DNA of 56,466 nt from Actinomycetota bacterium (GTDB lineage: Bacteria > Actinomycetota > UBA4738 > HRBIN12): the NCBI GenBank assembly GCA_016201135.1, contig JACQDK010000005.1:1-56466 (forward strand), in the 5' to 3' direction. Below the pieces are notes generated by a model, which was given only the letters and a program-made list of their open reading frames with translations, did not search any database and was not told the DNA's origin. The translations under genes were made by a program, and so were the position numbers. Of the stretch, positions 1 to 40,685 are shown in pieces; position 1 is the stretch's first letter, and each line of letters begins with the position of its first letter.

Positions 1-666
1 CATCATGTGCACCATGTACCGGAAGAAGATGACGCGGTCGGCGGTCGTGAGAGCCTCGTCGAACTGGAAGTTGGACTCGAACTGGCCGTTGGCGTCCTCG
101 TGGTCGTTGGCGTAGTTGTCCCAGCCGAGCTGCGTCTGGTACTTCGACAGGGTCGAGATGAAGTCGAACTGCCGGGACAGGGCCTTCATGTCGTAGCAGG
201 GGCGGTCGAGCGTGTCCAGCGGGTCGGCCACGCTGATCGACCCGTCCTCGTCCAGCTTGGTCAGGAAGAACTCGGCCTCCTGGCCGGTCTTGAAGACGTA
301 GCCCATGTCGGCTGCGCGCTTGAGCTGGCGCTTCAGGATGACCCGTGGGCAGTACGGCCACGGCTCGCCCTCCACGTAGATGTCGCAGGCGAACCGGGCG
401 AGGTTGGGCTGCCAGGGCACCGGCGTGAAGCTCTCCGGGTCGGGCATCGCCGCGAGGTCTGGGTCGTTCGGACCCTGCCCGATCTCGCCGGTCGCGAAGC
501 CCGCGAACCCTGCCCCCTCGGCGAACACGTCCTCCAGGTGGTTGGCCGGGACCAGCTTCGCGTTGGCCTTGCCGTACATCTCCACGAACTGCGCGAAGAT
601 GAACTCGATCCCCATCTTGTCGACGAGCTTGCGGACCTCCTCGACCGACTTGGGCCTATCAGCCAT
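1..666 (-). CDS. gmaS: Gamma-glutamylmethylamide synthetase (type III glutamine synthetase, GlnT/GmaS), N-terminal part; runs off the window start
   Basis: Hand-translated (not in the ORF track because it is open at the window edge): MADRPKSVEEVRKLVDKMGIEFIFAQFVEMYGKANAKLVPANHLEDVFAEGAGFAGFATGEIGQGPNDPDLAAMPDP...GQEAEFF...RPCYD...ANDHEDANGQFESNF. The AKLVP/GAGFAGFA and DHEDANGQFE motifs are typical of GlnT/GmaS. The ATG overlaps the end of the upstream regulator. Confidence 0.85.
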   Translation of the reverse strand, partial: MADRPKSVEEVRKLVDKMGIEFIFAQFVEMYGKANAKLVPANHLEDVFAEGAGFAGFATGEIGQGPNDPDLAAMPDPESFTPVPWQPNLARFACDIYVEGEPWPYCPRVILKRQLKRAADMGYVFKTGQEAEFFLTKLDEDGSISVADPLDTLDRPCYDMKALSRQFDFISTLSKYQTQLGWDNYANDHEDANGQFESNFQFDEALTTADRVIFFRYMVHMM

Positions 667-2470
667 CCTTGCCCCCTTCCCCTACAGCCGTCTTCCGCAT
701 CCGACGCAACTTGACGACCTTCGCCGCCACCGCGAGCGAGAGCCAGTCCTCTCGCTCGAGGTCGATCCCCGACTCGCGCTCGATGCGGTCGAGACGCTGC
801 CGGAGGGTGTTCGGGTGGATGAACAGGGCGCGCGAGGTCGCCACCACGTTGCCCCTGTGGTCCAGGTAGCCCTCGAGCGTGTCGAGCAGCTGGGTGCCGC
901 GCTTGCGGTCGTACTCCACGAGGAGCTCCAGGCGCTGCTGAGAGCGGTCCCGGAGGTCGTCCTCGGTCTGGAGCACGTACCGGTAGGGGCCGAGGTCCTC
1001 GTAGGCGGTTACCCCGGGCGCCCCCCTGATCAGCGCGCCCACCTCCGCCGCGGACTCGGCCTCCTGGAACCCGCGAGCGAACGACCGCGGGCCGCTGCAC
1101 GCGGCGGAGGCGCCCACCGAGAGCCCATCGCCCGAGACGGGGTCCCCCCAGTCCATGTCCAGCACCGACCTGAGGATCTCCTCCGCGTCTGCCTCCCCGA
1201 TCGGGACTATCGCCCGGATCGACCGCTCGAGGTTGTCGACCAGCACGTTCGGGAACCGCGCGACCAGCCGCGCCTCGACCTGGCCGGCGCGGTCCGGCCA
1301 GGAGAGGCGGGGCTTCGGCTTGAGTCCCGGCTTGGGCTTGGCTCGGCTGCCGGTGGCCTTCCAGGGGACGATGTGCAGCACGAGGTGCGGCGACGATAGG
1401 TCGCAGGCCAGGCGCGCCGCGAGCGCGCCCACCGCCTCCCGCTCGGCATCTCCCCGAGCGAGCATCTGGAAGAAGTCCTTCAGGAGATTCTTCTCCCGCA
1501 GGTGCTCGATCACCTGGTGCTGCTTGAGCGCCACGGCCGTGTGGGCTGCCACCGCGGCCAGGGCAGTCTCGGCCTCGCCGGCCCGGCCCGGGATCGTCAC
1601 GCCGACGAGGCCCAGCCGCTCACCGCCGGCCACGAGCGGCAACACGATCGGGATGCCTTCGAAGGGTTCGCCCCAGAGGGCGGCGGCCAGCCGGCGAGAC
1701 TTCTCCGAGCGAGCCTTCGACGGCGCCTCCAGGGCGTCGAGCCACAGCGAGCGGGTGTCGAGCGGCTCCGGAGAAGAACGCTCGGGTCTTGCGACCGCGA
1801 GCCGGAGCCGGCCGTCTGGATCGAGCAGGTGGATCTCGGCGCGGTCGGCCCGAAGGAGCTCCAGGAGGCTGGCGGCCACCACCCGGAGGACGTCGTCCTG
1901 GCTGCCCGCCGACGCGATCCGCTGGGAGAGCTGCGACAGGTTCGACAGCAGCGCCACGCGCGCGGTGGCATCCTCGTAGAGCCGGGCGTTCTCCACCGCG
2001 CCCGAGATCAGCGCCGCCGTGTGCTCCAGGAAGTCAAGGTCGGTTCGGGCGAACTCGTGCGGCGCGTCGGCGTGCAGCGTGATCACGCCGATCACGTCGC
2101 CCGCGCGGGCGAAGATCGGCACCGAGACGAGCGACTGGTACACCTCGTCGCCCAGCTCCGGGAAGGACGCGCGGCGCACGCGGGGATCCTCGAGCGCGCC
2201 CTCCCGGATGTGGGCTGAGCGCCGGGTCTTCGCGACCCACCCCGTGAGCCCCTCTCCGAGGGGGATGAGGACCTTGCCCTACAGGTGCTCATACATGCTC
2301 GAAGCGGCGCGGAGCCCGAGGCCGTCGTCGCGCAGGAAGTAGACGAAGCAGGCGTGGCAGGCCGTGGCCTCCGTGACGAGCCGCACCACCCCGCGAAGGA
2401 TCGCCTCCAGATCGGGGCCGGCCCCGATCGTCTGGATCAGCTCGTACAGGTAAGCGCGATCGTCGGTCAC
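659..2470 (-). CDS. GAF-GAF-PucR/CdaR family transcriptional regulator, interrupted by an in-frame TAG at 2279-2281 (nonsense mutation, sequence error or readthrough)
   Basis: ORFs 2279..2542 and 659..2179 are in the same frame and read ...SSMYEHL*GKVLIPLGEGLTGWVAKTRR...SLVSVPIF... as one continuous GAF domain. The C-terminus LLDTLEGYLDHRGNVVATSRALFIHPNTLRQRL is the PucR HTH. Probable start is GTG at 2470. Confidence 0.8.
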
Positions 2471-2736
2471 CCGGCGCACCGCGGCAAGGGGTCCCGATCC
2501 GGTCTTGGCTCTTGCCGCGACCGACCCGTGGGTCGCACTCACCGCGCCGGGTCACCTCCGCACGATATGTGGAGGCTGCCCATAACGAGCCCCCTAGGGC
2601 GCGGACCGTACGCCGGTCGTTCCCGTTCGTCAAGTCCGGGACGCGCCGAGAGCCGCCGCCAAAGCGCGGATGGACGCGGCTGCCCAAAGAGCCCGCCGGG
2701 CGGCGAGCCGCGATGCGGCCGGGTAGGTGCCGGGCG

Positions 2737-3147
2737 CTACCTGGCGATGACCACCGGGCAGTGCGCGAGGTTGATGACCTTGTGGGCCACGCTCCCCACG
2801 AAGGACGCGGCCCAGTCGGAGAGGCCGCGAGAACCCATCACGATGGCGTCGAACCCGCCCTGCTGGGCTTCGTCCACGATCTCGGCGGCCGCGCGTCCGA
2901 AGGGCGCGCTCCTGACCTCCGCTTTGGCTACGATGCCTTGCTCGGCGAGCCGGTCCACCACGGCGCTGGCGATCGCCAGGGCGTCGGCAGGTGCCTCGAG
3001 GGCGCCGTGGAAGCGGCCTATCTCGACCTCCCGGACGTGCATGACCGTCACCTCCGAGCCCATCGCGCCGGCGAGCTGCACCGTGAGCGCGACGGCCTTG
3101 TCGGCCGACTCCGAGCCATCGACCGCGACGAGGATCTTCTCGAACAT
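2737..3147 (-). CDS. Universal stress protein (UspA family)
   Basis: MFEKILVAVDGSESADKAV...IVMGSRG...GSVAHKVINLAHCPVVIAR; GGAGG RBS upstream of ATG at 3147. Confidence 0.93.
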   Translation of the reverse strand: MFEKILVAVDGSESADKAVALTVQLAGAMGSEVTVMHVREVEIGRFHGALEAPADALAIASAVVDRLAEQGIVAKAEVRSAPFGRAAAEIVDEAQQGGFDAIVMGSRGLSDWAASFVGSVAHKVINLAHCPVVIAR

Positions 3148-3169
3148 CTCGTCCACCTCCTCTGCTCCG

Positions 3170-3234
3170 AGCATAGGTGCGCTCCTCGCCCCCTCCAGGG
3201 TCTGTCGACCGGTGCGCCAAGGGTCGTCGGTCCC
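3170..3234 (-). promoter_or_regulatory. usp promoter with two tandem DosR/DevR-like boxes
   Basis: -10-like TATGCT (minus strand, 3170-3175); GGGTC-TGTC-GACCG at 3198-3211 and GGGTC-GTCG-GTCCC at 3221-3234, 23 bp apart. Resembles GGGAC-N4-GnCCC and lies upstream of a usp gene, a typical DosR target. Confidence 0.65.
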
Positions 3235-3288
3235 GCGGCTCGCGAGGGACCGGGAGCGATCAGCCAGGACCCGCGACACGAGGGCGAG

Positions 3289-3578: not shown

Positions 3579-4973
3579 GTGACGGATCTCGATCGGTTCC
3601 TCGAACAGCCCGGACGGGAAGAAGCCATCGCCGAGGTGAGGAAGCAGATCGACGCCGAGGGCGTCACGTACATGTACTACCAGTTCGTCTCGGTGACCGG
3701 GCGCATCATGGGCAAGGGCATCCCCGCCAAGCACTGGGAGTCCATCGCCCGGCGCGGCTTCCAGCTGGTCTACGGGTCGACGGCGAACCTGTTCGTGGAC
3801 CGGGACGGCAACTACATCGGGTACGGGCCCGAGGCCCGTGAGCTGGTCGGCCTCGCCGACGTGGACACCTTCTGCGTGCTGCCCTGGGACCGCAAGACCG
3901 CCCGCGTCTTCTGCACCCTGTTCCGTGGCCGCGAGGAGGAGGTCGACGGCGGCGCCTTCCTCACATCTGACTGCCGCGGCAACCTGAAGCGGATCCACGA
4001 CGAGTTCACCGCCGAGACCGGGCTGCATCTGCGGGCGGGCTGCGAGCCCGAGATGATGTGGCTCAAGACCAACCCCGACGGCACGCCGTCGGTCGAGGGC
4101 AAGACGAAGCCGTACTGCTACCACATCGACCAGTTCTCCGAGCTTCAGCCGATCATCCACAAGGTGATGGAGTACGGCGAGGCGATGGGGCTGGACATGA
4201 TCCAGGGCGACCACGAGGACGCGCCCGGCCAGCTCGAGCTGAACTTCATGTTCGACAAGGCCGAGCTCACCGCCGACCGGCTCACCACCTACCGCCAGAT
4301 CTGCCGCCAGGTGGGGCGTGAGATGAACGCCTTCGCCTGCTTCATGCCCAAGCCCTTCATGGGGGTCTCGGCGAACGGGTGCCACCACAACATCTCCCTG
4401 TGGCAGGGCGACCAGAACATGTTCCTGCCCGACGGCGACGATCCCCGGGTGCCCGGCAAGGTCGGCCTGCACGCGATCGGCGGCGTGCTGAAGCACCTGC
4501 GGGCCCTCACGTGCATCACCTCGCCCACCGTGAACTCCTACCGGCGGTTCTGGGACGCGGGCTTCTGGGCTCCGATCTTCGCGGACTGGGGCTTCCAGAA
4601 CAGGACGACGGCCCTGCGCATCTCGGCGCCGGGCCGCTACGAGTACCGATCGGTCGACTCCGCGGTGAACCCCTACCTGTCGTTCGCCGCGTTGCTTGTC
4701 GCGATGAAGGACGGCTTGGAGAACAGCATCGACCCCGGCCCGCCCGAGGAGCGGAACATCTACGACGCGATCGCCGCGGGCAAGGACGTCACCCGGATCC
4801 CCGAGACGCTTGGCGAGGCGCTGGACGCCCTCGCCGCCGACGACGTCGTCAGGGCGGCAATGCCCGGCGACATGGAGCGCGTGTTCATGCACTACAAGCG
4901 CGACGAGTGGACGCGGTTCATCGCGACGGTGAGCGACTGGGACATCGGCGAGTACCTGGACATCCTCCCCTAG
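3579..4973 (+). CDS. Glutamine synthetase-like gamma-glutamyl-amine ligase (second, divergent GS paralog)
   Basis: GS catalytic motifs GCEPE, DHEDAPGQLE, MPKP, NGCHHNIS, NRT, EYRSVD. The Glu-flap reads GFWAP instead of GFEAP, as in amine-glutamylating GS-like enzymes. Confidence 0.85.
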   Translation: MTDLDRFLEQPGREEAIAEVRKQIDAEGVTYMYYQFVSVTGRIMGKGIPAKHWESIARRGFQLVYGSTANLFVDRDGNYIGYGPEARELVGLADVDTFCVLPWDRKTARVFCTLFRGREEEVDGGAFLTSDCRGNLKRIHDEFTAETGLHLRAGCEPEMMWLKTNPDGTPSVEGKTKPYCYHIDQFSELQPIIHKVMEYGEAMGLDMIQGDHEDAPGQLELNFMFDKAELTADRLTTYRQICRQVGREMNAFACFMPKPFMGVSANGCHHNISLWQGDQNMFLPDGDDPRVPGKVGLHAIGGVLKHLRALTCITSPTVNSYRRFWDAGFWAPIFADWGFQNRTTALRISAPGRYEYRSVDSAVNPYLSFAALLVAMKDGLENSIDPGPPEERNIYDAIAAGKDVTRIPETLGEALDALAADDVVRAAMPGDMERVFMHYKRDEWTRFIATVSDWDIGEYLDILP

Positions 4974-4995: not shown

Positions 4996-5925
4996 ATGTG
5001 CGGCATCGCAGGCATAATCCACCGGGACGCAGCAGCGGACATCGGCACGGAGATGACCCGCATGCTTCAGTCGATGAAGCATCGCGGGCCGGACTCGTCC
5101 GGCTACGCGCTGTTCGGCCCGCAGAGCGACATGGTCGTCATCAGGTTCAAGCTCGCCGATGCCAACGACCGGCGCGGCTTCGACTTCAAGGAGCGGCTGG
5201 AGCGTCACCGTCAGGAGGTCGAGACCCGCCTGTCCAAGATCGGCGCCTCCATCGACCGGGTGGAGAGAGAGACCGAGTACGCCTACCGCGCCAAGGTCCG
5301 CTACGAGGGCGACCTGAAGGCGCTCGCCGACTACCTCGAGGACGTACCTGGCTGCGAGGTCCTCTCGATGGGGCACTCCCTCGAGATCGTGAAGGACCTG
5401 GGCGACGCGAACGAGGTGTCGGACCTATACCGGCTGGGCGGCTTCGAGGGGACTCACGCGATCGGGCACGTGCGGATGGCGACCGAGTCCGACGTCGACA
5501 TCTCCGGAGCGCACCCGTACTGGGCCTACCCGTTCTCCGACGTGGCCGTGGTCCACAACGGGCAGCTCACGAACTACTTCCACTGGCGTCGCCGGCTGGA
5601 GCGCTCCGGGCACCGGTTCCAGTCCGAGTGCGACTCCGAGATCATCGCCGTGTACCTCGCCGAGAAGATGGCCGATGGGGTAGGGCTCGAGGATGCCATG
5701 CACCAGAGCCTGGAGGAGCTCGACGGAGTGTTCACGTACATGGCCGTCACGAGCGACTCGCTCGGCGTGGCGAAGGACGAGATGGCCGCGAAGCCGCTCG
5801 TGCTCTTCGAGTCCGACGACCTGGTCGCGATGGCCTCCGAGGAGATCGCGATACGCGCGCTGATCGACCACGAGATCGATACGTACGATCCGTACGAGGG
5901 GCAGGTGCTGGCATGGACACGGTAG
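4996..5925 (+). CDS. mgsA: N-methylglutamate synthase subunit A-like (class II glutamine amidotransferase, GlxB), copy 1
   Basis: N-terminal MCGIAG, HRGPDS, IGHVRMATES, VHNGQLTN, CDSEII; first gene of a GATase-GXGXG-FMN triplet. Confidence 0.82.
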   Translation: MCGIAGIIHRDAAADIGTEMTRMLQSMKHRGPDSSGYALFGPQSDMVVIRFKLADANDRRGFDFKERLERHRQEVETRLSKIGASIDRVERETEYAYRAKVRYEGDLKALADYLEDVPGCEVLSMGHSLEIVKDLGDANEVSDLYRLGGFEGTHAIGHVRMATESDVDISGAHPYWAYPFSDVAVVHNGQLTNYFHWRRRLERSGHRFQSECDSEIIAVYLAEKMADGVGLEDAMHQSLEELDGVFTYMAVTSDSLGVAKDEMAAKPLVLFESDDLVAMASEEIAIRALIDHEIDTYDPYEGQVLAWTR

Positions 5926-6701
5926 GCGAGCGCAGGATTACCTACGATGCAAGGGGTCTCGCCGAGCCCAACGCCGAGGTCCCGCACGTCTCCGAGATCG
6001 ACGGCGGCAGGGCGGTGTTCGACGCTGCGGATCTGACGACGCGACAGATCAACCTGGAGCTCCGCTCGCTCATCTACGAGCAGGGCATCCGCGACGTCAC
6101 GGTGCGCAATCCCGGTGCGAAGCATTCGATAGGGGTGGGCATCCTCCAGCGCTGCAAGATCCGCTACGAGGGGAGCCTGGGGTACTTCGGGCTGGGAGTG
6201 ATCGACGGCCCCGAGATCGTGGTGACCGGCCGGGTGGGCTGGTCCGTGTGCGAGAACATGATGTCAGGCGTCGTCGTGATCGAGAAGAACGCCGGCTCGC
6301 TCACCGGGGCCGCGATCCGCGGCGGGGACCTCGTGGTGAAAGGCGGTGTCGGCGCGAGGACCTGGATCGACCAGAAGGGCGGGACGATCATGGTCGGCGG
6401 CAACGCGGGATCGATGACCGGGTTCATGATGCAGCGCGGGCGGCAGATCATCTGCGGAGACGTCGGCGACGGCCTGGGCGACTCGATGTACGACGGCACG
6501 CTCTACGTCGCAGGCAAGGTGAAGTCCCTCGGCATCGACTGCGTCCCGGGGGAGTGGACCGACGCCGACACGGAGCTGATCGAGCGGAAGTTCCGGATGT
6601 ACGGCCTGGACAAGCCGGACTCGTTCCAGAAGTTCGTGTGTGGGAAGCAGCTCTACAACTACGACAACCTTGAGCCGAGCGAGAAGAAGCTCGTCATCTG
6701 A
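5913..6701 (+). CDS. mgsB: N-methylglutamate synthase subunit B-like (GltB C-terminal GXGXG beta-helix, GlxC), copy 1
   Basis: ATG at 5913 inside ORF 4998..6701: NPGAKHSIGVG, GRVGWSVCENMMSG, GFMMQRG, GDSMYDG, QLYNY. Confidence 0.82.
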   Translation: MDTVGERRITYDARGLAEPNAEVPHVSEIDGGRAVFDAADLTTRQINLELRSLIYEQGIRDVTVRNPGAKHSIGVGILQRCKIRYEGSLGYFGLGVIDGPEIVVTGRVGWSVCENMMSGVVVIEKNAGSLTGAAIRGGDLVVKGGVGARTWIDQKGGTIMVGGNAGSMTGFMMQRGRQIICGDVGDGLGDSMYDGTLYVAGKVKSLGIDCVPGEWTDADTELIERKFRMYGLDKPDSFQKFVCGKQLYNYDNLEPSEKKLVI

Positions 6702-6721
6702 GCGAAGGGGCAGGCGAAGCG

Positions 6722-8131
6722 ATGGCAGACGACGTCTCCTCCCGTAGGAACGTTCTTGGCCGCTCGAAGATCTTCACGGAGGACGTCATGAACGACATCC
6801 ACGTGAAGGCCGAGCTCGGCCGCTACAGGATGCGCGGCTTCTCGATGTTCAAGCCGATCCCGCACTGGGACGAGCTGATGTTCCTTCCGGGCACCCTCAC
6901 CCGTTTCGTGATCGAGGGCTACCGGGAGAAGTGTGAGACGAAGACGGTGATCGGCGCGAGGTTCGCCAAGAACCCGCTCGAGCTCGAGATCCCGATCTAC
7001 ATCACGGGGATGAGCTTCGGGGCGCTCTCGCTGGAGGCCAAGATGGCCCTCGCCAAGGGCGCGTCCATGGCGGGGACCGCCACGTGCTCGGGGGAGGGCG
7101 GGATGATCCCGCCCGAGCGCGACCACTCGACGAAGTGGTTCTACCAGGTGATCCAGAGCCGCTACGGGTTCAATCCTCATCACCTGATGCTCGCCGACGG
7201 AGTCGAGTTCTTCATCGGCCAGGGCTGCAAGGTGGGCCTGGGCGGCCACCTGATGGGTCAGAAGGTCACGGAGCAGGTCGCCGAGATGCGGTCCCTGCCG
7301 GCCGGGATCGACCAGCGCTCGCCGGCCCGCCACCCGGACTGGCTGGGTCCCGACGACCTCTCGCTCAAGGTGCAGGAGGTTCGCGAGGCCACCGACTACC
7401 GCGTGCCGATCCAGCTGAAGCTGGGAGCCGCCCGGGTCTACGACGACGTGCGGATGGCTGCGAAGTGCGGCCCGGACTCCATCTACCTGGACGGGGCCGA
7501 GGGCTCGACCGGAGCCGGTCCGCACATCGCCACCGAGGAGACGGGCATCCCGCTCATGGCCGCGATCCCTGAGGCCCGGCGGGCGCTCGAGGACGTGGGC
7601 CTGGCCGACGAGATCGACCTGATCGTCGCTGGGGGCATCCGCAACGGCGCCGACGTCGCCAAGTGCCTGGCCCTCGGCGCGAAGGCGGTCGCGATCGGCC
7701 ACTCCGCCCTGATGGCCCTCAACTGCAACAAGGACATCCCAGGCGTGACCGACTACGAGGGCACGGTAGGAGTCCCCGCCGGCCAGTGCTACCACTGCCA
7801 CACCGGCAGGTGTCCGGTCGGGATCACGACGCAGGACCCCGAGCTCCGCAAGAGGCTGAACGTCGAGGAGGGCGCGCTCCGCGTCTACAACTTCCTCACC
7901 GCGATGACGATGGAGCTCCAGATGCTCGCGCGCGCCTGCGGCAAGACCGACGTGCACTCGCTCGAGCCCGAGGACCTGTGCGCGCTCACGCTGGAGGCCT
8001 CGGCGATGGCGAAGGTACCGCTCGCGGGGACCAGCTACATCCCCGGCGTGACCGAGGAGAGCACCCTCGACCGGATCAAGACGATGATGGAGAAGTACCT
8101 GGCCGACACGGGCCAGTACCCGAACGCCTAG
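6722..8131 (+). CDS. mgsC: N-methylglutamate synthase subunit C-like (FMN-binding glutamate synthase domain, GlxD), copy 1
   Basis: GMSFGALS, SGEGG, GQGCKVGLGG, DQRSPARHPD, DGAEGSTGA, CYHCHTGRCPVGITTQD (FeS motif). Confidence 0.85.
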   Translation: MADDVSSRRNVLGRSKIFTEDVMNDIHVKAELGRYRMRGFSMFKPIPHWDELMFLPGTLTRFVIEGYREKCETKTVIGARFAKNPLELEIPIYITGMSFGALSLEAKMALAKGASMAGTATCSGEGGMIPPERDHSTKWFYQVIQSRYGFNPHHLMLADGVEFFIGQGCKVGLGGHLMGQKVTEQVAEMRSLPAGIDQRSPARHPDWLGPDDLSLKVQEVREATDYRVPIQLKLGAARVYDDVRMAAKCGPDSIYLDGAEGSTGAGPHIATEETGIPLMAAIPEARRALEDVGLADEIDLIVAGGIRNGADVAKCLALGAKAVAIGHSALMALNCNKDIPGVTDYEGTVGVPAGQCYHCHTGRCPVGITTQDPELRKRLNVEEGALRVYNFLTAMTMELQMLARACGKTDVHSLEPEDLCALTLEASAMAKVPLAGTSYIPGVTEESTLDRIKTMMEKYLADTGQYPNA

Positions 8132-8141
8132 GAGAGACTCG

Positions 8142-9740: not shown

Positions 9741-9748
9741 TCTCCCCT

Positions 9749-18806: not shown

Positions 18807-18868
18807 GAGTCACCTCCGGCAGCTTCTCCTGCCCGCTGGCCCGCCCCTTCGCTCCGGGGATGTGGGCG

Positions 18869-18933: not shown

Positions 18934-18944
18934 TGGCAGGGCCC

Positions 18945-19808: not shown

Positions 19809-19816
19809 CGCCCTAC

Positions 19817-25212: not shown

Positions 25213-25253
25213 TCGACACCCCTTCGAAGAACGACCCCCAGCCGTGACGGGCC

Positions 25254-25283
25254 GGTATAGCACGAAGCACCCGGCGCGTTCAA
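25254..25283 (-). promoter_or_regulatory. Sigma70-like promoter of the permease
   Basis: Minus strand TTGAAC-N18-TATACC with an extended TG. Confidence 0.45.
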
Positions 25284-25718: not shown

Positions 25719-25722
25719 CGCG

Positions 25723-27988: not shown

Positions 27989-28001
27989 GGAAGGTTCGGC
28001 C

Positions 28002-32507: not shown

Positions 32508-33133
32508 TCGCCGCCACGCGCCGCTCGCCTATCGCCCGCCTGAGCGCCTCGCTCGGCGCGAGCGTGGAGACGGAGGCCGGTTGGGAGATCGCGGCCCACT
32601 ACGGGGACGAGGCGGCCGAGCGGGCCCTCCTCAGGGACCTCGTGGCGGTGGCCGACGTCACACCCCGGGGGAAGATCGACCTGCGCGGGGAGATCGACGG
32701 TGGAGTGCTGACCGCGGCCGGCGAGGTCCTCACGGCCCGGATGTGGGATGGATGGGCCCTGCTGCTGACCGAGCCGGGGGGCGAGGAAGCGGTGCTGGAT
32801 CGCGCGGACGCGGCCGCGGGCCCGCGCGCGATGGCGACGGACGTCACGCACCTCTTCGCCGGCCTCGCGCTCGCGGGCCCGAAGCTCGAGGACGCGCTCG
32901 CGCGGCTCACCTCGTGGGATCCATCGACGCTGGCGCCGGGGTCGGCGACCGGCGCCTCTATCGGCGACGTCCGCGCCGTGCTGGTGCGCCGCGACATCGG
33001 GATCCCAGTGCTCGAGGCGTACGTCGCGACCGAGTTCGCGCGCTACGCCTGGGAGACGGTGCTCGGGGTCGTCCGGCGGCTCGGCGGCGGCCCCGCCGGC
33101 TGGCGCGCCCTACGCGCGGAGGGGTGGAGCTGA
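32504..33133 (+). CDS. soxG: Sarcosine oxidase gamma-like subunit (MgdD)
   Basis: GTGA overlap; VADVTPRGKIDLRG, TDVTHLFAGLALAGP, FARYAWETV. Confidence 0.75.
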   Translation: MIAATRRSPIARLSASLGASVETEAGWEIAAHYGDEAAERALLRDLVAVADVTPRGKIDLRGEIDGGVLTAAGEVLTARMWDGWALLLTEPGGEEAVLDRADAAAGPRAMATDVTHLFAGLALAGPKLEDALARLTSWDPSTLAPGSATGASIGDVRAVLVRRDIGIPVLEAYVATEFARYAWETVLGVVRRLGGGPAGWRALRAEGWS

Positions 33134-34347
33134 TGCATCCGGTCCGGTACTTCAAGCCCTGGCGCATGTGGCGCCACCACGACGTCGAGAAGACGTACGA
33201 CGTGGTGATCGTCGGCGGCGGGGCGCACGGCCTGGCCATGGCCTACGAGCTCGCGAAGCGCGGCGTGAAGAAGGTGGCGGTCCTCGAGAAGAGCTACATC
33301 GGAGCCGGAGGCAGCGGCCGCAACACCACGATCGTCCGTGCGAACTACCGCACGCCGGAGGGTGTGGCCTTCTACAAGGAGGCCCTGCGCCTCTACGAGC
33401 AGCTCGCCCAGGAGCTCGACTACAACCTGCTCTTCTCGCAGCAGGGGCACCTCACGCTCGCTCACGCCGAGCGCGCGGTGAACGTGGCCCACGAGCGCGC
33501 TGAGGTCAACCGGCTCCTCGGAGTGGACTCCAGGGTGATCTACCCCGACGAGATCGGAAGGCTCTGCCCCGTGCTCGATCTCTCGGACCGTCCCGCGTTC
33601 CCGATCATGGCCGCGCTCTACCACCCGCCGGGCGGCGTGATCCGCCACGACGCGGTGGTGTGGGCCTACGCTCGCCAGGCGGACCGCATGGGCGTGCACA
33701 TCCACCAGGACACCGAGGTGACCGGGGTCGTCGTCGAGGACGGCCGCGTGGCGGGGGTCCGGACCTCGCGCGGGGACATCTCCACGCGCGTCGTGGTCTC
33801 GGCGGTGGCCGGATGGACGAGCGAGGTGGCCAGGATGGCCGGGGTGCGCGTCCCCATCGTCACGCACCCGCTACAGGCCTTCGTGACCGAGCCCCTGAAG
33901 CCGTTCCTCCACGTGATCCTGGTCTCGGCGACCCTGCACGTGTACGTGTCGCAGACCGACCGCGGCGAGGTGCTGATCGGCTCGGAGATCGAGCCTTACT
34001 CCTCGTACTCGCAGGCCTCCACGCTCAACTTCCTCGAGGTCACGGCGAAGCACGCCCTGGAGCTCCTGCCGATGCTGGGTCGCGTGAAGATGATGCGCGC
34101 ATGGGGAGGGCTCTGCGACGTCACGCCCGACTACTCCCCGATCATGGGCCTCACCGACGTCGACGGGTTCCTGCTCGACGGCGGGTGGGGGACCTACGGC
34201 TTCAAGGCCACGCCGATCGTCGGGGTGACGATGGCAGACCTGATCCACACGGGGCGGGTTCCTGACCTGATCGCGCCCTTCGCCGTCTCGCGCTTCTGGG
34301 AGCGCAGGCTGGTCTCCGAGATCGCCGCCGCGGCCGTCTCGCACTGA
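33133..34347 (+). CDS. soxB: Sarcosine oxidase beta-like FAD subunit (MgdA)
   Basis: YDVVIVGGGAHGLA, GSGRNTTIVRANY, RHDAVVWAYAR, HPLQAFVTEP, YVSQTDRGE, GWGTYGFKATP, AAAVSH. Confidence 0.9.
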   Translation: MHPVRYFKPWRMWRHHDVEKTYDVVIVGGGAHGLAMAYELAKRGVKKVAVLEKSYIGAGGSGRNTTIVRANYRTPEGVAFYKEALRLYEQLAQELDYNLLFSQQGHLTLAHAERAVNVAHERAEVNRLLGVDSRVIYPDEIGRLCPVLDLSDRPAFPIMAALYHPPGGVIRHDAVVWAYARQADRMGVHIHQDTEVTGVVVEDGRVAGVRTSRGDISTRVVVSAVAGWTSEVARMAGVRVPIVTHPLQAFVTEPLKPFLHVILVSATLHVYVSQTDRGEVLIGSEIEPYSSYSQASTLNFLEVTAKHALELLPMLGRVKMMRAWGGLCDVTPDYSPIMGLTDVDGFLLDGGWGTYGFKATPIVGVTMADLIHTGRVPDLIAPFAVSRFWERRLVSEIAAAAVSH

Positions 34348-34374: not shown

Positions 34375-35214
34375 ATGGCCGCCTCGGACCCGCTCCGCCG
34401 GACCGTCTCGCCGGCCAGGGTCGTGGTCGTGCGGGGCGGCGTGCGCTCGGAGCGGGCCGACACGCTCGCCACCGAGGAGCCGATGGAGATCCGCGTGGCC
34501 GGCCCGGGCCAGGAGGCGCGGAGCGTCGCCGTCACCATGCGGACCCCGGGCGGCGACTACGAGCTAGCGGTGGGGTTCCTGTTCACGGAGGGGCTGGTCC
34601 GGCCCGGCGACATCCAGCGCGTGGCGTACTGCGACGATCTGGAGGACCAGGAGCAGCGCTACAACGTCGTCACCGTGACGCTCTCTCGTCCCTTCGACTT
34701 CGACCTGCTCCGCCGGAACTTCTACGCGACCTCGTCGTGCGGGATCTGCGGGAAGGCGGCGCTGGAGGACGTGGAGGTCCGCTGCGCGCCCGTCGCCGAC
34801 GGGCCCGAGGTGCGGGCGGAGGTGCTGGCCGGCCTGCCCGAGCAGCTCCGCGCCGCGCAGAAGGTATTCGAGCGGACCGGAGGGCTGCACGCGGCCGGAC
34901 TCTTCACCGCGGGGGGCAAGGTCGTCTCGCTCCGCGAGGACGTGGGGCGGCACAACGCGGTCGACAAGGTGATCGGCGAGCACGTGCTGACCGGCGGCGT
35001 TCCGCTAGCCGGTCACGTCCTGCAGGTGAGCGGCCGGGCGTCGTTCGAGATCGTGCAGAAGGCGGCGATGGCGGGGATCCCGATCGTGGCCGCGGTCTCC
35101 GCACCGTCCTCGCTCGCCGTCGAGGCGGGGGACCGGTTCGGGATGACGATCGTGGGGTTCGTCCGAGACGGGCGTTTCAACGTGTACTCGCGCCCGGACC
35201 GCGTGGCCGGCTAG
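34375..35214 (+). CDS. fdhD: Formate dehydrogenase accessory sulfurtransferase FdhD
   Basis: EEPMEIR, TMRTPG, SSCGICG, TGGLHAA, EDVGRHNAVDKVIG, SGRASFE. Confidence 0.95.
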   Translation: MAASDPLRRTVSPARVVVVRGGVRSERADTLATEEPMEIRVAGPGQEARSVAVTMRTPGGDYELAVGFLFTEGLVRPGDIQRVAYCDDLEDQEQRYNVVTVTLSRPFDFDLLRRNFYATSSCGICGKAALEDVEVRCAPVADGPEVRAEVLAGLPEQLRAAQKVFERTGGLHAAGLFTAGGKVVSLREDVGRHNAVDKVIGEHVLTGGVPLAGHVLQVSGRASFEIVQKAAMAGIPIVAAVSAPSSLAVEAGDRFGMTIVGFVRDGRFNVYSRPDRVAG

Positions 35215-35359: not shown

Positions 35360-37282
35360 ATGCCGAACGGGCTAACGCGACTGACCGAGCCGATGGTCCG
35401 CGACGATGGGACGCTGCGCGCCGCCACGTGGGAGGAGGCCCTCGACCGGGCCGCTGCGGGGCTGCGAGCCGCGACCGAGCGGAACGGAGGAGACGGGGTC
35501 GGCCTGTTCAGCTGCTCCAAGGCCACCAACGAGATGAACTTCATGGCACAGAAGTTCGCTCGGCAGGTCTTGCGCAGCAACAACATCGATAGCTGCAACC
35601 GCACCTGACACGCTCCTTCTGTGGTCGGTCTGGCCACGGTGTTCGGAGCCGGAGGCGGCACCAGCTCATACGAGGAGGTCGAGAACGCCGACCTCGTCAT
35701 CTTGTGGGGGTCGAACGCGCGGAGCGCGCATCCGATCTTCTTCCACCACGTCCTCAAGGCGGTGAACCGGGGGGCGAAGCTGATCGTGGTCGACCCGCGG
35801 CGCACGGGGTCGGCCGAATGGGCCGACCTGTGGCTGGGGATCGACGTGGGTACCGACATAGCGCTCTCGAACGCGATGGCGCGCGAGATCATCGTGAGCG
35901 GTCTGCATCACAGCGCCTTCGTCGATGGCGCCACCCTCGGCTTCGAGGAGTACCGAGACTCCGTGATGGACTGGACCCTCGAGCGCGGTGAGGCCGTCAC
36001 GGGAGTGCCCGGCGAGGCGATCCGCGAGGTGGCACACGCGTACGCGCAGGCGGGTCGCGCGATCCTTTGCTGGACCCTCGGCATCACCGAGCACCACAAC
36101 GCGGTAGACAACGTCCTTTCGCTCATCAACCTCGGGTTGCTCACAGGACACGTGGGGAGGTACGGATCGGGCCTGAACCCGCTCCGGGGCCAGAACAACG
36201 TTCAGGGCGGCGGGGACATGGGCGCGATCCCGAACAAGCTCCCGGGCTTCCAGGACATCGAGAAGGACGCCGACGCCCGTGCGCGGTTCGAGGCCGCGTG
36301 GGGCGTGCCCATCGCGCCCAGGGCCGGTTGGCACCTCTCGAAGATGTTCGAGGCGATGGAACGCGGCGACCTCACGGCCTGCTACGTGATCGGCGAGAAC
36401 CCGGTCGTATCGGAGGCGGACAGCTCCAGGGCGACGCGGCTGCTGGAGGACCTGGATTGCCTGATCGTCCAGGACATCTTCCTCACGCAGACGGCGAAGA
36501 TCGCCGACGTGGTCTTCCCGGCCGCGGCTTCGTGGGCCGAGAGCGAGGGGACCGTCACGAACAGCGAGCGCAGGGTCCAGCGCGTGCGCAGGGCGCTGGA
36601 CCCGCCGGGCGAGGCGAAGGACGACATCTGGATCATCGAGCAGCTGGCCGCTCGCCTGGGGGCCGAATGGGGCGGAGTGACGCCCAGGCAGGCCTGGGAC
36701 GAGTGCCGCTCGCTCGCCCCGAAGATGTTCGGGGGCATGACCTACGAGCGGCTGGAGGCCCTATCGGGGATCCAGTGGCCCTGTCCCGACGAGGCGCACC
36801 CCGGAACCCAGTTCCTGCACGCCCGGCTGTGGGAGTTCGACGACCCCGATCGACAGGGCCCGAAGGCGCCGTTCAGCGTGGTCGTCGACGAGCCGCCGGT
36901 CGACGAGCTCACCGACGAGTACCCGATCCGCCTCACGACCGGCCGCCGGCTGGACTCGTACAACTCGGGCGTGCAGTCGGGGCAGTTCACCTCGCCGCTC
37001 CGCAGGCCCGAGGAGATCGAGATCTCGCCCGAGGACGCGGAGCGGCTCGGCCTGCAGGAGGGGGAGTGCGTGGCCGTCACGTCTCGACGCGGCTCGGTCG
37101 AGGCGCCGGTCCGCGTCACGCCGGCCGTCCGCCCGGGCCTGGCCTTCATGACGCTCCACTTCCCCGACCAGGTGGCGACCAACGCCCTCACGATCGAGGC
37201 TTGGGACCCGAAGTCCGGCACGTCCGAGTTCAAGGCCACCGCGATCCGCATCGAGAAGCTGCCCGCGAAGGTCGAGGCGTAG
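35360..37282 (+). CDS. fdhF: Formate dehydrogenase catalytic subunit (Mo/W-bisPGD), selenocysteine at TGA 35606-35608
   Basis: ORFs 35360..35608 and 35621..37282 join in frame as NNIDSCNRT-U-HAPSVVGLATVFG, the position of the metal-ligating Sec of FdhF (ARV-U-HGPS). Also LRGQNNVQG, GTVTNSERRVQ, LTTGR. Confidence 0.92.
35609..35649 (+). promoter_or_regulatory. Bacterial SECIS element
   Basis: Directly 3' of the UGA: lower stem GCTCC/GGAGC, upper stem GTGGTC/GGCCAC, apical GGTCT loop matching the E. coli fdhF SECIS. Confidence 0.8.
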
Positions 37283-37289
37283 GAGGCGA

Positions 37290-39143
37290 GTGGACCTTCA
37301 CCTGCTGAGCGCGGCGCCCACGGAGGAGGAACGCGCCGCCGTGGACGATCTCCTCGGTCCTCCGGAGTCCGGATGGGTGGGGGGAGAGCGCGACGCGTCG
37401 GTCGAGACCCGGGTGGCAAGGGGGGGCCGCCAGGCGAGAGAGCGGCGACACCTCTTGCTGCCCGCGCTCCACGCCCTGCAGGCGAGGGTCGGGTGGATCA
37501 GCGAGGGCGGGCTCGGCTACGTCTGCCGGCGGCTGACCGTGCCCCCGGCCGAGGCCTACGGCGTGGCGACGTTCTACGCGATGTTCAGCATCGAGCCGCG
37601 CCCGAAGACCGTCGTGCACGTCTGCGACGACCTCGCGTGCCGGGTGGCCGGTGCGGAGGCGCTCATCGAGGGCGTCCTTCGCGAGGTGGGTTCCGAGGGC
37701 GCGAGCCAGATCCTGCGGAGCCCCTGCCTCGGACTCTGCGAGCGGGCGCCGGCCGGCCTCGTGCAGAGCGCCGGCGAACGCCCGAGCGACATCGCCATCG
37801 GCCCGCTGTCGTCGGGGTCCTTCGAGCCGCTCCTGCGCAGCGGCCCCTGGCCGGCGATGGCCGGCCCCGATCCGGCGATCGCAGCGCCCCAGACCGCCGG
37901 CCAGCGCGGAGGTCTCCGCCTGCTGCGAAGGATCGGGGTCGTGGATCCGGGGTCGCTCGAGGACTATCGCGGGAACGGCGGCTACGAGGCCCTGCGCAGG
38001 GCCTTCGAGCTCGGGCCCGAGGGCACCGTCCGCGAGGTCACCGACTCGAAGCTCCTCGGGCGCGGCGGGGCCGCGTTCCCGACCGGCGTCAAGTGGAAGG
38101 CCGTGGCGGAGCAGCCGGTCCGACCGCACTACTTCGTCTGCAACGCCGACGAGTCAGAGCCCGGCACGTTCAAGGATCGCGTCATCATGGAGCACGACCC
38201 GTTCGCCGTGATCGAGGCCCTCACGATCGCGGGCTTCGCGACCGGCTCGGAGAAGGGCTACGTCTACATAAGGGGTGAGTACCCGCTGGCCACCGCTCGT
38301 CTCGAGCACGCGATCGTCGAGGCTCGCCGCCACGGGTTCCTGGGCGAGGATGTGATGGGTCACGGCTCGCGGTTCGACGTAGAGCTGCGCCGCGGCGCCG
38401 GCGCTTACATCTGCGGCGAGGAGACGGCGCTCTTCAACTCCATCGAGGGCAGGCGCGGCGAGCCACGCAACAAGCCGCCCTTCCCCGTTACGCACGGAGT
38501 CTTCGGCAAGCCCACGGGCATCAACAACGTCGAGACGTTGATCAACGTGCTCGAGGTTCTCCGGATGGGCGGATCCGAGTACGCGAAGATCGGCACCGAG
38601 ACCTCGACGGGACCTCGCCTCTTCTGCGTGAGCGGCACGGTGGCGCGCCCCGGCCTCTACGAGGTCGAGTTCGGCGCGACCCTCCGCGACGTGCTCGATC
38701 TGGCAGGAGGAGCGCCGGCTTCGCTGAAGGCGGTCTTGCTCGGCGGTGCGGCCGGCGGCTTCGTGGGTCCCGGGGAGCTCGACATCAAGCTCACGTTCGA
38801 GGACTCCCGCGCCGGCGGATACACCCTTGGCTCCGGCGTGGTGATGGCGTTCGACGGCTCCGTCGACCTGGTCGACATCGTCCTTCGGATAGCCGCTTTC
38901 TTCCGCGACGAGTCCTGCGGGCAGTGCGTGCCGTGTCGGGTGGGCACGGTGCGTCAGGAGGAGGCGCTGCACCGGCTCGTGTCGGGACGATCCATCGGCT
39001 CGAACGATGACGAGCTGCGGCTCCTGTCCGAGATCGCGCAGGTGATGCGCGACGCCTCGATCTGCGGGCTCGGCCAGACCGCCGCGAGCGCCGTGCAGTC
39101 GGCTCTCTCGCGGCTCCACCTCTTCGACGGAGGAACCGCATGA
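37290..39143 (+). CDS. NAD-reducing diaphorase subunit of FDH (NuoE-NuoF / FdsG-FdsB fusion)
   Basis: LLPALHALQ...VATFY..VCDDLAC...CLGLC (2Fe-2S); GRGGAAFPTG, NADESEPG, GAYICGEET, ESCGQCVPCRVG...ICGLG. Confidence 0.9.
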   Translation: MDLHLLSAAPTEEERAAVDDLLGPPESGWVGGERDASVETRVARGGRQARERRHLLLPALHALQARVGWISEGGLGYVCRRLTVPPAEAYGVATFYAMFSIEPRPKTVVHVCDDLACRVAGAEALIEGVLREVGSEGASQILRSPCLGLCERAPAGLVQSAGERPSDIAIGPLSSGSFEPLLRSGPWPAMAGPDPAIAAPQTAGQRGGLRLLRRIGVVDPGSLEDYRGNGGYEALRRAFELGPEGTVREVTDSKLLGRGGAAFPTGVKWKAVAEQPVRPHYFVCNADESEPGTFKDRVIMEHDPFAVIEALTIAGFATGSEKGYVYIRGEYPLATARLEHAIVEARRHGFLGEDVMGHGSRFDVELRRGAGAYICGEETALFNSIEGRRGEPRNKPPFPVTHGVFGKPTGINNVETLINVLEVLRMGGSEYAKIGTETSTGPRLFCVSGTVARPGLYEVEFGATLRDVLDLAGGAPASLKAVLLGGAAGGFVGPGELDIKLTFEDSRAGGYTLGSGVVMAFDGSVDLVDIVLRIAAFFRDESCGQCVPCRVGTVRQEEALHRLVSGRSIGSNDDELRLLSEIAQVMRDASICGLGQTAASAVQSALSRLHLFDGGTA

Positions 39144-40090
39144 GCCAGGTGATGCTCGATCCGCCCAGGCGCCTGATCGACCTGGAGGTCGATGGCAAAC
39201 CCGTCCGCGTGCCGGAAGGCTCGACGATCCTGGACGCCTGCCGGGCCGAGCGGATCGACACGCCGACCCTCTGCTACGCCGACAACCTGACCCCGGTGAA
39301 CGCCTGCCGCGTGTGCGTGGTCGAGGTCGAGGGCTCCCGCACCCTGGTGCCGGCGTGCTCGCGACCCGCCGAGCCGGGCATGAAGATCAGCACCGACACG
39401 GAGCGGGTCCGCCATTCGCGACGGCTCGTGATGGAGTTCCTTGGATCGTCCGTGGACACGTCGCTCGGCTCGCCCGACTGGCATCGCTGGCAGGATGAGT
39501 ACGAGGCACATCCCGAGCGGTTCGGCGCGGCGATGCCACAGCTCCAGGCGGGGGAGCGTGACTCGCGGGCCCCAGGGCATCACCACGAGCCCCAGGATCC
39601 CGCCGTCGCCGAGTCCGTCGCGCAGCCCGTGAAGATCGACAACGAGCTGTACGTGCGCGACTACTCGCGGTGCGTGCTCTGCTACAAGTGCGTCGAGGCC
39701 TGCGGCGTGGACGCGCAGAACACGTTCGCGATCGCCGTGGCGGGCCGAGGCTTCGACGCGCGCATCTCAACCGAGTTCGCCGTCCCGCTGAGCGAGTCGG
39801 CCTGCGTGTACTGCGGCAACTGCATCGGAGTGTGCCCGACCGGAGCGCTGATGTTCACGAGCGAGCACGACATGCGCGAGGCCGGGACGTGGGACGAGTC
39901 GCGGCAGCAGGTCGTCGAGACGATCTGCCCCTACTGCGGGGTCGGGTGCGACCTCGAGCTGCACGTTCAGGACAACGAGATCGTCAAGGTCACATCCCCC
40001 TGGGACAACTACGTGACCAGCGGGCACCTGTGCGTGAAGGGGCGGTTCGGTTTCAGCTTCGTGCAGCAGCGCGGACCAGGCGGAGGCTAG
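39140..40090 (+). CDS. FDH iron-sulfur subunit (NuoG/FdsA N-terminal 2Fe-2S + 4Fe-4S, plus the Mo-proximal 4Fe-4S domain)
   Basis: PTLC...CRVC..C; CVLCYKC; CVYCGNCIGVCPTGAL; C-terminal TICPYCGVGC...LCVKGRFG. Confidence 0.9.
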   Translation: MSQVMLDPPRRLIDLEVDGKPVRVPEGSTILDACRAERIDTPTLCYADNLTPVNACRVCVVEVEGSRTLVPACSRPAEPGMKISTDTERVRHSRRLVMEFLGSSVDTSLGSPDWHRWQDEYEAHPERFGAAMPQLQAGERDSRAPGHHHEPQDPAVAESVAQPVKIDNELYVRDYSRCVLCYKCVEACGVDAQNTFAIAVAGRGFDARISTEFAVPLSESACVYCGNCIGVCPTGALMFTSEHDMREAGTWDESRQQVVETICPYCGVGCDLELHVQDNEIVKVTSPWDNYVTSGHLCVKGRFGFSFVQQRGPGGG

Positions 40091-40112
40091 CGTCGTTCGC
40101 GCGACCGGGATC

Positions 40113-40685
40113 GTGCTGGCGGGAGGGCGTTCGGCGCGGTTCGGTTCGAACAAGCTCGAGGCCGTGTTACGCGGCATGCCGTTGCTGCACCACGCCGTCC
40201 TGCGCGCCGCAGAGGTGTGTCACGAGGTCGTAGTCGTGGTGGCTCCGGGAGCTCCGGAGCCGTCGCTGCCGCCGGGGGTAGCCGCGACCGTCGTCCGCGA
40301 CGCCACCGAGGGGGAGGGCCCTGTGGCCGGACTCATGGCAGGTCTGCTCGCGGCCGCCGGGGACGATCTGGCCCTGGTCGCCGGAGGTGACATGCCCGAC
40401 CTTCAGATCGCGGTGCTGCTGGAGATGCTGCGCGTGGCCGAGGGAGTGCCCGTCGAGGCCGTGGCCCTCCAGGACGGGGATCGCTTCCGGCCTCTCCCGT
40501 GCGTCGTCCGGACCGGCCCCGCTGCCGAAGCAGCGCACTTCCTGCTGCACGCCGGCCGCCGGCGCCTGCGCGACGTGCTCGGATCCCTCCGGCTCGCCGT
40601 GATCGACGAGCCGACCTGGACGGGCCTGGATCCGGAGCGGCGCACCCTCTTCGACGTGGACGAGCCGGCAGACCTCGGCTCGTGA
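40113..40685 (+). CDS. mobA: Molybdenum cofactor guanylyltransferase
   Basis: (ATGI)VLAGGRSARFGSNK, GEGPVAG, GGDMP, FDVDEPADL; the true start is uncertain. Confidence 0.85.
   Translation: MLAGGRSARFGSNKLEAVLRGMPLLHHAVLRAAEVCHEVVVVVAPGAPEPSLPPGVAATVVRDATEGEGPVAGLMAGLLAAAGDDLALVAGGDMPDLQIAVLLEMLRVAEGVPVEAVALQDGDRFRPLPCVVRTGPAAEAAHFLLHAGRRRLRDVLGSLRLAVIDEPTWTGLDPERRTLFDVDEPADLGS

Follow-up and report, generated by a model that had tools for sequence, protein, structure and literature searches.

By which enzymes would an uncultured actinobacterium break down trimethylamine (TMA) and trimethylamine N-oxide (TMAO), and how far can the methyl groups be followed? The question is raised by contig JACQDK010000005.1 of assembly GCA_016201135.1 (C108 below), whose entire length of 56,466 bp forms the window analysed here and which belongs to a 2.24-Mb metagenome-assembled genome (MAG). 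Methylated amines are major carriers of nitrogen and of C1 units, and as volatiles they bear on climate; to our knowledge, how they are degraded has been established almost exclusively in Proteobacteria. The original prediction, made from the sequence alone, had described positions 1-40685 as an island of roughly 40 kb for the oxidation of methylated amines to CO2. Genes were called by third-position GC and named with Pfam and NCBIfam. With a probability of about 0.85, and on the homologies set out below, the stretch represents a catabolic gene island in an uncultured member of the Actinomycetota, one that would convert TMA and TMAO to methylamine, transfer the methyl groups to tetrahydrofolate (THF) and lead them on to formate and CO2. 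Entry is organised around one conserved scaffold that takes either a cassette of TMA dehydrogenase (TMADH) and electron-transfer flavoprotein (ETF) or a cassette of an acyl-CoA dehydrogenase (ACAD)-fold protein, the TMAO demethylase Tdm and a PhyH-family dioxygenase; the window and a Gaiellales MAG (L057) carry both in tandem.

One scaffold and two entry cassettes

Nine co-directional genes occupy the minus strand from 25263 down to 11709 in the order permease-ACAD-Tdm-PhyH-TMADH-EtfB-EtfA-GcvT-FeS/CCG, with gaps of 0-190 nt (Table 1). This array thus unites two cassettes that are separate in relatives. The comparison covered 160 loci, comprising the best 80 genome loci with a Tdm relative and 80 TMADH metagenome loci (76-94% identity), and used tblastn of the window proteins with a minimum coverage of 50% and chosen identity cut-offs of 55% for ACAD, 50% for PhyH and for DAO and 45% for the flavin-containing monooxygenase (FMO), the last measured against the Pseudonocardia protein. 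The scaffold of close relatives displays on one side the glutamine synthetase (GS)-like gene B, mgsABC set 1, a gene for a 144-aa protein, a C26 hydrolase, the DAO flavoprotein and the flavin reductase, in the middle PhyH, Tdm, ACAD and the permease, and on the other side a gene for a 117-aa protein, a universal stress protein (Usp), sometimes mgsABC set 2, soxDAGB and fdhD. The 144-aa gene is present at 50% identity or more in 22/80 Tdm loci and also occurs in TMADH loci.

The TMADH block was found in a single one of the 80 Tdm loci, that of the Gaiellales MAG, where it again lies next to ACAD-Tdm-PhyH. The TMADH metagenome loci carry permease-TMADH-EtfB-EtfA-FeS-GcvT within the same scaffold: one flank has the 117-aa gene and Usp, the opposite flank DAO, the 144-aa gene and mgsCBA1. 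Short contigs are frequent here, and among the 80 loci EtfB was recovered in 52, EtfA in 45, the FeS gene in 26 (after etfA), GcvT in 20 and a permease homologue in 58 (before TMADH). Tdm, ACAD and the reductase were found in 0/80 TMADH metagenome loci.

TMADH and the O2-independent entry

The TMADH homologue (702 aa) displays a full-length architecture of old yellow enzyme (OYE)-type FMN and ADP-binding domains and is nearest to TMADH itself, with 894 bits to PDB 1djn (residues 2-693), compared with 575 bits to histamine dehydrogenase 6de6 and 129 bits to dienoyl-CoA reductase 1ps9. In the alignment to 1djn, Cys30, which we take to be the 6-S-cysteinyl FMN site, is conserved together with Tyr60, Ser74, Trp105 and the four cysteines of the CxxCxxC...C cluster. 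Tyr60, Ser74 and Trp105 are presumably the TMA-type residues, their counterparts in dimethylamine dehydrogenase being Gln, Thr and Phe (Scrutton-lab work; our literature search gave no source for it). The candidate ETF:quinone oxidoreductase that closes the array has about five hydrophobic N-terminal segments, and in NCBIfam the stand-alone GcvT-like protein most resembles the C-terminal half of Tdm (284.6 bits). From this strong homology, TMADH is predicted to convert TMA to dimethylamine (DMA) without O2 and to pass its electrons through the co-transcribed EtfBA to the membrane FeS/CCG oxidoreductase, while the formaldehyde may be captured as methylene-THF by the GcvT-like protein. The O2-independent entry route that had been proposed for this island is represented by the TMADH, ETF and FeS genes.

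The arrangement resembles the TMADH-ETF system of Methylophilus methylotrophus W3A1 (PDB 1djn, 1o94) in the full-length match, the key residues and the adjoining ETF genes. In contrast to that system, TMADH here shares its operon with genes for a stand-alone GcvT-like folate protein and a membrane FeS/CCG oxidoreductase, and its homologues at 70-96% identity form an actinobacterial lineage.

Tdm and its ACAD-fold partner

Tdm (778 aa) has the DUF1989 plus GCV_T architecture and reaches 1170.5 bits with the equivalog model NF053776 (cut-off 1100), a cut-off that was exceeded in 0/14 control genomes. It matches the solved Paracoccus TDM (9q59) over its full length at 898 bits, and the alignment keeps the equivalents of D220, F327 and D367, the residues that contact TMAO in the Paracoccus enzyme according to the available part of PMC13619132. 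By bit scores and residues, TMADH and Tdm thus both group with the characterised enzymes and away from enzymes for other substrates; a grouping with the latter is what the original prediction had named as fatal to it. Strong homology suggests that Tdm would cleave TMAO to DMA and channel the formaldehyde to its own folate domain.

The Tdm reaction is a non-redox cleavage and needs no O2. The O2-dependent entry of the original prediction consequently cannot be founded on tdm: a search of the MAG for the monooxygenase Tmm returned a 29.5-bit FMO fragment only, and DmmA (PF11927) gave no match in the same 89.8%-complete genome. The PF11927 model does find its target in Streptomyces G202, beside tdm. 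An O2-dependent route through the ACAD-fold protein with the flavin reductase, and through PhyH, is nevertheless plausible.

The ACAD-fold protein is 468 aa long and the stop of its gene overlaps the tdm start (22157 vs 22153). Its motif VMGPT aligns with IYEGT of acyl-CoA dehydrogenases and places a Gly at the position of the catalytic Glu; this Gly is invariant in 28 sequences. In an even sample of 201 Actinomycetota genomes, the present one included, Tdm exceeds its cut-off in six, and the ACAD-fold protein (at least 81% identical) is encoded in exactly those six genomes, adjoining Tdm in each. A Tmm-like FMO was found in none of the five other genomes, the same query being positive in 3/3 known carriers. 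The ACAD-fold family is abundant and carries no name, with clusters of up to 750 member sequences. Across the Tdm loci the flavin reductase accompanies ACAD in 31/47 cases and FMO in 0/28, and it occurs in three loci without ACAD, all on short contigs. The reductase of the window is 65% identical to that of locus L087, where it is located between the DAO gene and PhyH. It lacks the C-terminal cyclic-nucleotide-binding domain seen in several relatives (L087:13232-14209), and at the border of the inserted TMADH block its stop codon shares bases with the tail of the convergent FeS gene.

ACAD-fold two-component flavin monooxygenases are known, for example DnmZ (PDB 4zxv) and DszC. The protein described here is like this class in its ACAD fold, in the missing catalytic Glu and in the separate flavin reductase encoded in the island; unlike the members of that class it is nearer in sequence to true ACADs and strictly linked to Tdm. 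It may form with the flavin reductase a two-component monooxygenase that converts TMA to TMAO in place of the missing Tmm.

PhyH, the DAO flavoprotein and the dimethylamine step

The PhyH protein carries the HxD...H motif and its gene is present in 24/80 Tdm loci and in 15/80 TMADH loci at the looser length filter (13 at the stricter one). It lies at most 300 nt downstream of a GcvT-domain gene in 19/24 Tdm loci and in 5/13 TMADH loci, four of the other eight being at a contig edge. Such pairing with a folate-binding domain is what would be expected of a formaldehyde-releasing demethylase, and PhyH is a candidate for the conversion of DMA to methylamine in place of the missing Dmm. In Pseudonocardia an FMO gene directly follows tdm, in the position that PhyH holds in the window. 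The DAO flavoprotein is encoded in 42/80 Tdm loci and in none of the five DmmA loci (four Streptomyces and L064). It occurs in 12/201 phylum genomes, all six Tdm genomes among them and the unpublished G120, on which nothing else here depends, counted in. The DAO homologue of a same-family genome (G116:C5:61864-63318) shows three in-frame TGA codons within the match. A search of the published literature gave nothing usable on actinobacterial dimethylamine enzymes.

The tmm-tdm-dmmDABC pathway of Methylocella silvestris and Ruegeria pomeroyi, with Paracoccus TDM 9q59 (PMC13619132), shares with the island the Tdm equivalog, the contact residues and the folate domain. In contrast to that pathway, Tmm and DmmA were not found in the MAG, and the ACAD-fold protein, flavin reductase and PhyH stand in neighbouring positions; Streptomyces, unlike the present genome, keeps FMO and DmmA. 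We tentatively consider, at odds well below even, that many Actinomycetota possess a complete aerobic TMA pathway that dispenses with Tmm and Dmm and would consist of ACAD plus reductase, Tdm, and PhyH with GcvT, joined here in one operon with TMADH-ETF to make an oxygen-flexible degrader.

From methylamine to methylene-THF

The gmaS gene is divided between two contigs. Its halves match TIGR03105 at positions 2-211 (285 bits, C108) and 216-434 (309 bits, C54:24077-24772, minus strand), which sums to about 595 bits against a cut-off of 469.6. The best PDB match of the C-terminal half is glutamate--methylamine ligase 9qur, with 234 bits compared with 172 for GS. For GS-like B the two scores lie close together, 227 bits with glutamate--methylamine ligase and 213 with a GS, and it is 29% identical to gmaS. 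The components of the two mgsABC sets are 46, 43 and 55% identical to each other, and mgsC1 is 85-93% identical in related islands. Homologues of soxD-A-G-B directly follow mgsC2; SoxD comes from a short frame (PF04267, 93.8 bits) and soxG is represented by a GCV_T fragment. By strong homology, GmaS, the two MgsABC sets and the SoxDAGB-type N-methylglutamate dehydrogenase are predicted to convert methylamine to methylene-THF. All component families of the N-methylglutamate (NMG) pathway of Methyloversatilis universalis and Methylocella (gmaS-mgsABC-mgdABCD) are also present here. In contrast to that pathway, the island holds two mgsABC sets and two ligases, the order is soxD-A-G-B, and set 1 is tied to the 144-aa protein, the C26 hydrolase and the DAO flavoprotein. 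Genome-wide, the MAG gives 13 GcvT-type folate domain matches and six GS-like genes (seven matches), so many that a genome of this small size is heavily committed to methyl-group and gamma-glutamyl chemistry.

Selenocysteine formate dehydrogenase and the folate link

The gene of the formate dehydrogenase (FDH) catalytic subunit contains one in-frame TGA (35606-35608), which read-through translation places as U131 in the context CNRT-U-HAPS. The genome has tRNA-Sec together with selB (306 bits) and selA (483 bits), both above their cut-offs, and the TGA in combination with this machinery indicates that the selenocysteine FDH is real. The start, the TGA and the gene order are identical in a same-family genome (G157, locus L106). 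The catalytic gene lacks the N-terminal Fe4S4 domain, which is found at the end of the NuoG-N-like gene two genes downstream, behind the NuoE-NuoF fusion. The enzyme resembles FdsABG-type NAD-dependent FDHs in its NuoE/NuoF-like and NuoG-like FeS modules, Mo-bisPGD catalytic domain, FdhD and MobA. It differs from them in the selenocysteine, in the fusion of NuoE with NuoF and in an alpha subunit split after the Fe4S4 domain, with the N-terminal piece downstream of the catalytic piece. We predict an NAD-linked selenocysteine FDH that would oxidise formate to CO2 with FdhD and MobA as accessory proteins.

The genes for the step from methylene-THF to formate had been said to lie outside the window, and this proved correct. 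A genome search gave two matches for folD and one for fhs, and these products would link methylene-THF to formate; for purU nothing exceeded the cut-off in the MAG, where 82- and 36-bit partial matches were the only ones. RuBisCO and hexulose-phosphate synthase were not found in the MAG, a search in which the serine-cycle genes were not included. The lack of these two enzymes fits dissimilation rather than C1 assimilation by those two routes. With two folD, fhs and the selenocysteine FDH present, the proposed oxidation to CO2 is plausible.

Alternative readings

The host is an uncultured soil/groundwater Actinomycetota bacterium with a genome of about 2.5 Mb, and the contig is actinobacterial. 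The MAG has 132 contigs, 89.8% completeness and 1.0% contamination. That contamination, and the absence of the TMADH block from the islands of all close relatives, could suggest that the tandem of both cassettes is a chimera of assembly or binning, or that the contig is not actinobacterial, as the original prediction had feared. Both ends of the TMADH block are, however, bridged with 0 differences by separately built Logan contigs. These were assembled from four runs of a single groundwater-metagenome study, whose samples may be those that yielded the MAG, and match the stretch at 99-100% identity; contigs of three runs span the reductase/FeS junction (11145-11801, 11362-11742 and 11339-11792) and those of two runs the TMADH/PhyH junction (18226-19440 and 18235-19878), so that the reading as an assembly chimera fails. 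The identical tandem layout in the Gaiellales MAG also speaks against it, as does the GC content, which stays at 0.67-0.73 along the entire window with an equally uniform third-position GC. The closest Tdm loci (76-82% identity) belong to Actinomycetota/Actinomycetes MAGs and nearly all of the best 80 to Actinomycetota; the nearest TMADH homologues (70-96%), where labelled, are assigned to Actinomycetota, Gaiellaceae or Thermoleophilia. A PASTA kinase is encoded in the window and a WhiB gene on the adjoining contig C54. The actinobacterial origin that had been proposed is thus upheld, and an artefact or a foreign contig is hardly credible. Almost as improbable is that the island serves glycine betaine, dimethylglycine and sarcosine, with Oxidored_FMN, ETF and FeS/CCG forming a dimethylglycine demethylase of the DgcAB type and soxDAGB encoding sarcosine oxidase. 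Pseudomonas dgcAB/sox clusters indeed combine an OYE-type flavoprotein, ETF, an FeS/CCG protein, soxBDAG and GcvT paralogues, so the domain architecture agrees, and soxA (TIGR01372, 791 bits) and soxB (TIGR01373, 462 bits) both remain under their cut-offs and do not fix the substrate. Against this stand the 894 bits and conserved substrate-bowl residues of TMADH, a Tdm that passes both the equivalog cut-off and the residue comparison, gmaS and two mgsABC sets adjoining sox, and the lack of betaine-demethylase or choline genes among the Pfam/NCBIfam matches in the window. On the TMADH residues, the Tdm equivalog and the position of gmaS/mgs beside sox, we rejected the betaine/dimethylglycine reading.

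A more serious competitor, possible if not favoured, concerns the division of labour in the aerobic cassette. ACAD-Tdm-PhyH could act on imported TMAO only, with ACAD (and the reductase) oxidising DMA and TMADH as the sole entry for TMA, while PhyH and/or DAO would do something else, such as oxidising a gamma-glutamyl or N-methyl intermediate. The overlap of the ACAD stop with the tdm start would also suit the handling of the Tdm product, an APC permease heads the operon, and DAO and DmmA never share a locus. In addition, ACAD and FMO/Tmm co-occur in 7/80 Tdm loci (among the 40 loci with full flanks, L017 of Pseudonocardia acaciae DSM 45401 and L084 of P. spinosispora DSM 44797, both cultured), which argues against ACAD as a simple replacement of Tmm. 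The competing reading is countered by the reductase never occurring with FMO (0/28 FMO loci), by the failure to find Tmm in any of the six ACAD-Tdm genomes of the sample, and by the finding that TMADH-only and Tdm loci, which would both yield DMA, have PhyH and not ACAD in common.

Several observations weigh against the reading of a TMA/TMAO catabolic island with ACAD as TMA oxygenase and PhyH as DMA demethylase, beyond the sox scores and the seven shared loci already given. The ACAD-fold protein has acyl-CoA dehydrogenases as its best PDB and NCBIfam matches and scores 114 bits with true members of that family vs 49 with DnmZ. Its AlphaFold2 (AF2) model (pLDDT 75.8) gives Foldseek TM scores of 0.7-0.75 to ACADs and does not separate dehydrogenase from oxygenase. 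The reductase gene lies behind the DAO gene and not beside ACAD, and the DAO flavoprotein is, from its distribution, an equally plausible DMA oxidase and so a rival candidate to PhyH. On the methylamine side, GS-like B falls short of the TIGR03105 cut-off, and the two complete MgsABC sets (GATase class II, GXGXG and Glu_synthase domains) are assigned at family level only, without a specific curated model. The APC permease obtains 211 bits from the TMAO-permease model NF053774, whose cut-off is 690. A hairpin about 14 nt after the UGA is no better than shuffled sequences (z = 0.48). The absence of Tmm, Dmm and PurU is that of an 89.8%-complete MAG, and all the loci compared are related to one another, so that the counts do not represent independent events.

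Gene map and extent of the island

Every gene class listed in the original prediction is present and contiguous within 1-40685 by Pfam and NCBIfam. Within these coordinates the present annotation adds the ACAD-fold protein, PhyH, flavin reductase, DAO flavoprotein, C26 hydrolase and SoxD, and conserved proteins of 144 and 117 aa. The 144-aa protein has no match in Pfam (also under relaxed thresholds) or NCBIfam and returned nothing usable from the ESM Atlas; the 117-aa protein gave chance-level matches only in relaxed Pfam. The left boundary of the proposed 40-kb island proved wrong, since the gene at 1-666 extends onto contig C54; the island is larger than 40 kb and runs off the left edge of the window. 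The ends of C54 and C108 abut within the one split gmaS, about four codons being missing and no exact end overlap being present. Beyond its gmaS half, C54 encodes a further APC permease, then a Usp and a DUF294/CBS/cNMP protein, and carries fhs (some 5 kb outside the window, past its left end) and a glyoxalase-like gene, followed by FTCD_C and FTCD_N genes, another GcvT-like gene, 5-formyl-THF cyclo-ligase and the WhiB gene.

The PucR-family regulator adjoining gmaS has an in-frame TAG at 2279-2281 (minus strand) inside its GAF domain (...SSMYEHL-stop-GKVLIPLG...), which could mark a pseudogene, stem from a sequencing error or be bypassed by a restart downstream. Directly after mobA, a 206-aa protein (40736-41356) is built almost entirely from calcium-binding nonapeptide repeats of the RTX type (240 bits, with 10 stretches matched). 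Further along (44411-46640) lie two tandem phosphofructokinase-family genes (359 and 228 bits), after which come genes for a GntG-family/low-specificity threonine aldolase and for a small molybdoenzyme resembling sulfite oxidase. An Rfam search of the window returned 0 matches.

Table 1. Genes of the island in window coordinates, with strand and supporting evidence.
Feature	Position	Strand	Evidence or remark
gmaS, N-terminal half	1-666	-	TIGR03105 positions 2-211, 285 bits
PucR-family regulator with GAF domain	659-2551	-	Pfam HTH_30, GAF, GGDEF_2
Universal stress protein	2737-3279	-	PF00582, 94 bits
GS-like B, candidate second gamma-glutamyl-amine ligase	3579-4973	+	TIGR03105 315 bits, under 469.6 cut-off
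mgsA1-mgsB1-mgsC1, N-methylglutamate-synthase-like set 1 (GATase, GXGXG, Glu_synthase)	4996-8131	+	Pfam
Conserved 144-aa protein, always after mgsC1	8142-8576	+	
Peptidase_C26 gamma-glutamyl hydrolase (PuuD-like)	8587-9378	+	PF07722, 169.7 bits
DAO-family FAD flavoprotein (probable start 9749)	9641-11083	+	PF01266, 108 bits, N-terminal half only
Flavin reductase (HpaC-like)	11086-11712	+	PF01613, 120.7 bits
Membrane FeS/CCG oxidoreductase (EtfD/DgcB-like), candidate ETF:quinone oxidoreductase	11709-13784	-	CCG and two 4Fe-4S motifs
Stand-alone GcvT-like folate-binding protein	13821-14930	-	GCV_T, GCV_T_C
etfB (15888-16652), etfA (14947-15903)	14947-16652	-	PF01012, PF00766
TMADH	16698-18806	-	894 bits to PDB 1djn
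PhyH-family Fe(II)/2-oxoglutarate dioxygenase	18945-19808	-	PF05721, 85.5 bits
TMAO demethylase Tdm	19817-22153	-	NF053776, 1170.5 bits
ACAD-fold flavoprotein	22157-23563	-	ACAD domains (Pfam)
APC-family permease, candidate for TMA/TMAO uptake	23698-25263	-	AA_permease_2
117-aa zinc-ribbon membrane protein and second Usp, divergent from permease	25365-26202	+	conserved in both cassette types
mgsA2-mgsB2-mgsC2, set 2	26385-29393	+	Pfam
soxD-soxA-soxG-soxB homologues (mgdBCDA-like)	29401-34347	+	SoxD at 29401-29694
FdhD sulfurtransferase	34375-35214	+	NF001943, 305.7 bits (cut-off 269)
Formate dehydrogenase catalytic subunit with selenocysteine	35360-37282	+	TIGR01591 positions 135-672
NuoE-NuoF fusion	37290-39143	+	Pfam/NCBIfam; NAD-linked diaphorase part
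NuoG-N-like Fer2/Fer4/Molybdop_Fe4S4 subunit	39140-40090	+	split-off N-terminus of FDH alpha subunit
MobA-like molybdenum cofactor guanylyltransferase	40113-40685	+	PF12804, 93 bits

Relation to earlier work and implications

The statement that TMADH, Tdm and the NMG pathway are characterised mainly in Proteobacteria is fair, although the genes themselves are already recorded in Actinomycetota. According to the parts of the two sources that were available, NMG-pathway and Tmo genes occur in actinobacterial methylamine users, the NMG pathway being noted in Mycobacterium (McTaggart et al. 2015, PMC5023230), and a 2025 survey names Actinomycetota as lesser carriers of dmd-tmd, tmm and tdm, Pseudomonadota accounting for 89% of dmd-tmd and 97% of tdm sequences (PMC12162431). 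The bare presence of such genes in the phylum is therefore not new. Four features are new: a single operon that holds the two cassettes in tandem, the association of TMADH with folate-capture and FeS partners, a selenocysteine FDH that is split, and the set of ACAD, reductase, PhyH and DAO. In the published literature searched, nothing was found on this set in place of Tmm and Dmm or on an ACAD gene beside tdm, and the term acyl-CoA has 0 occurrences in the available part of PMC13619132.

For the biology of these organisms, the island would mean that Actinomycetota of soil and groundwater hold a full gene chain from methylated amines to CO2, with an entry step for which two cassettes can be exchanged for each other. 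Three conserved, abundant and uncharacterised proteins stand where Tmm and Dmm would be expected, and these supply candidates for two new enzymes, a TMA oxygenase and a dimethylamine demethylase. If these assignments are true, the dimethylamine step, a long-noted gap, would be filled by a new enzyme class. Surveys that use tmm and dmm as marker genes would overlook such organisms.

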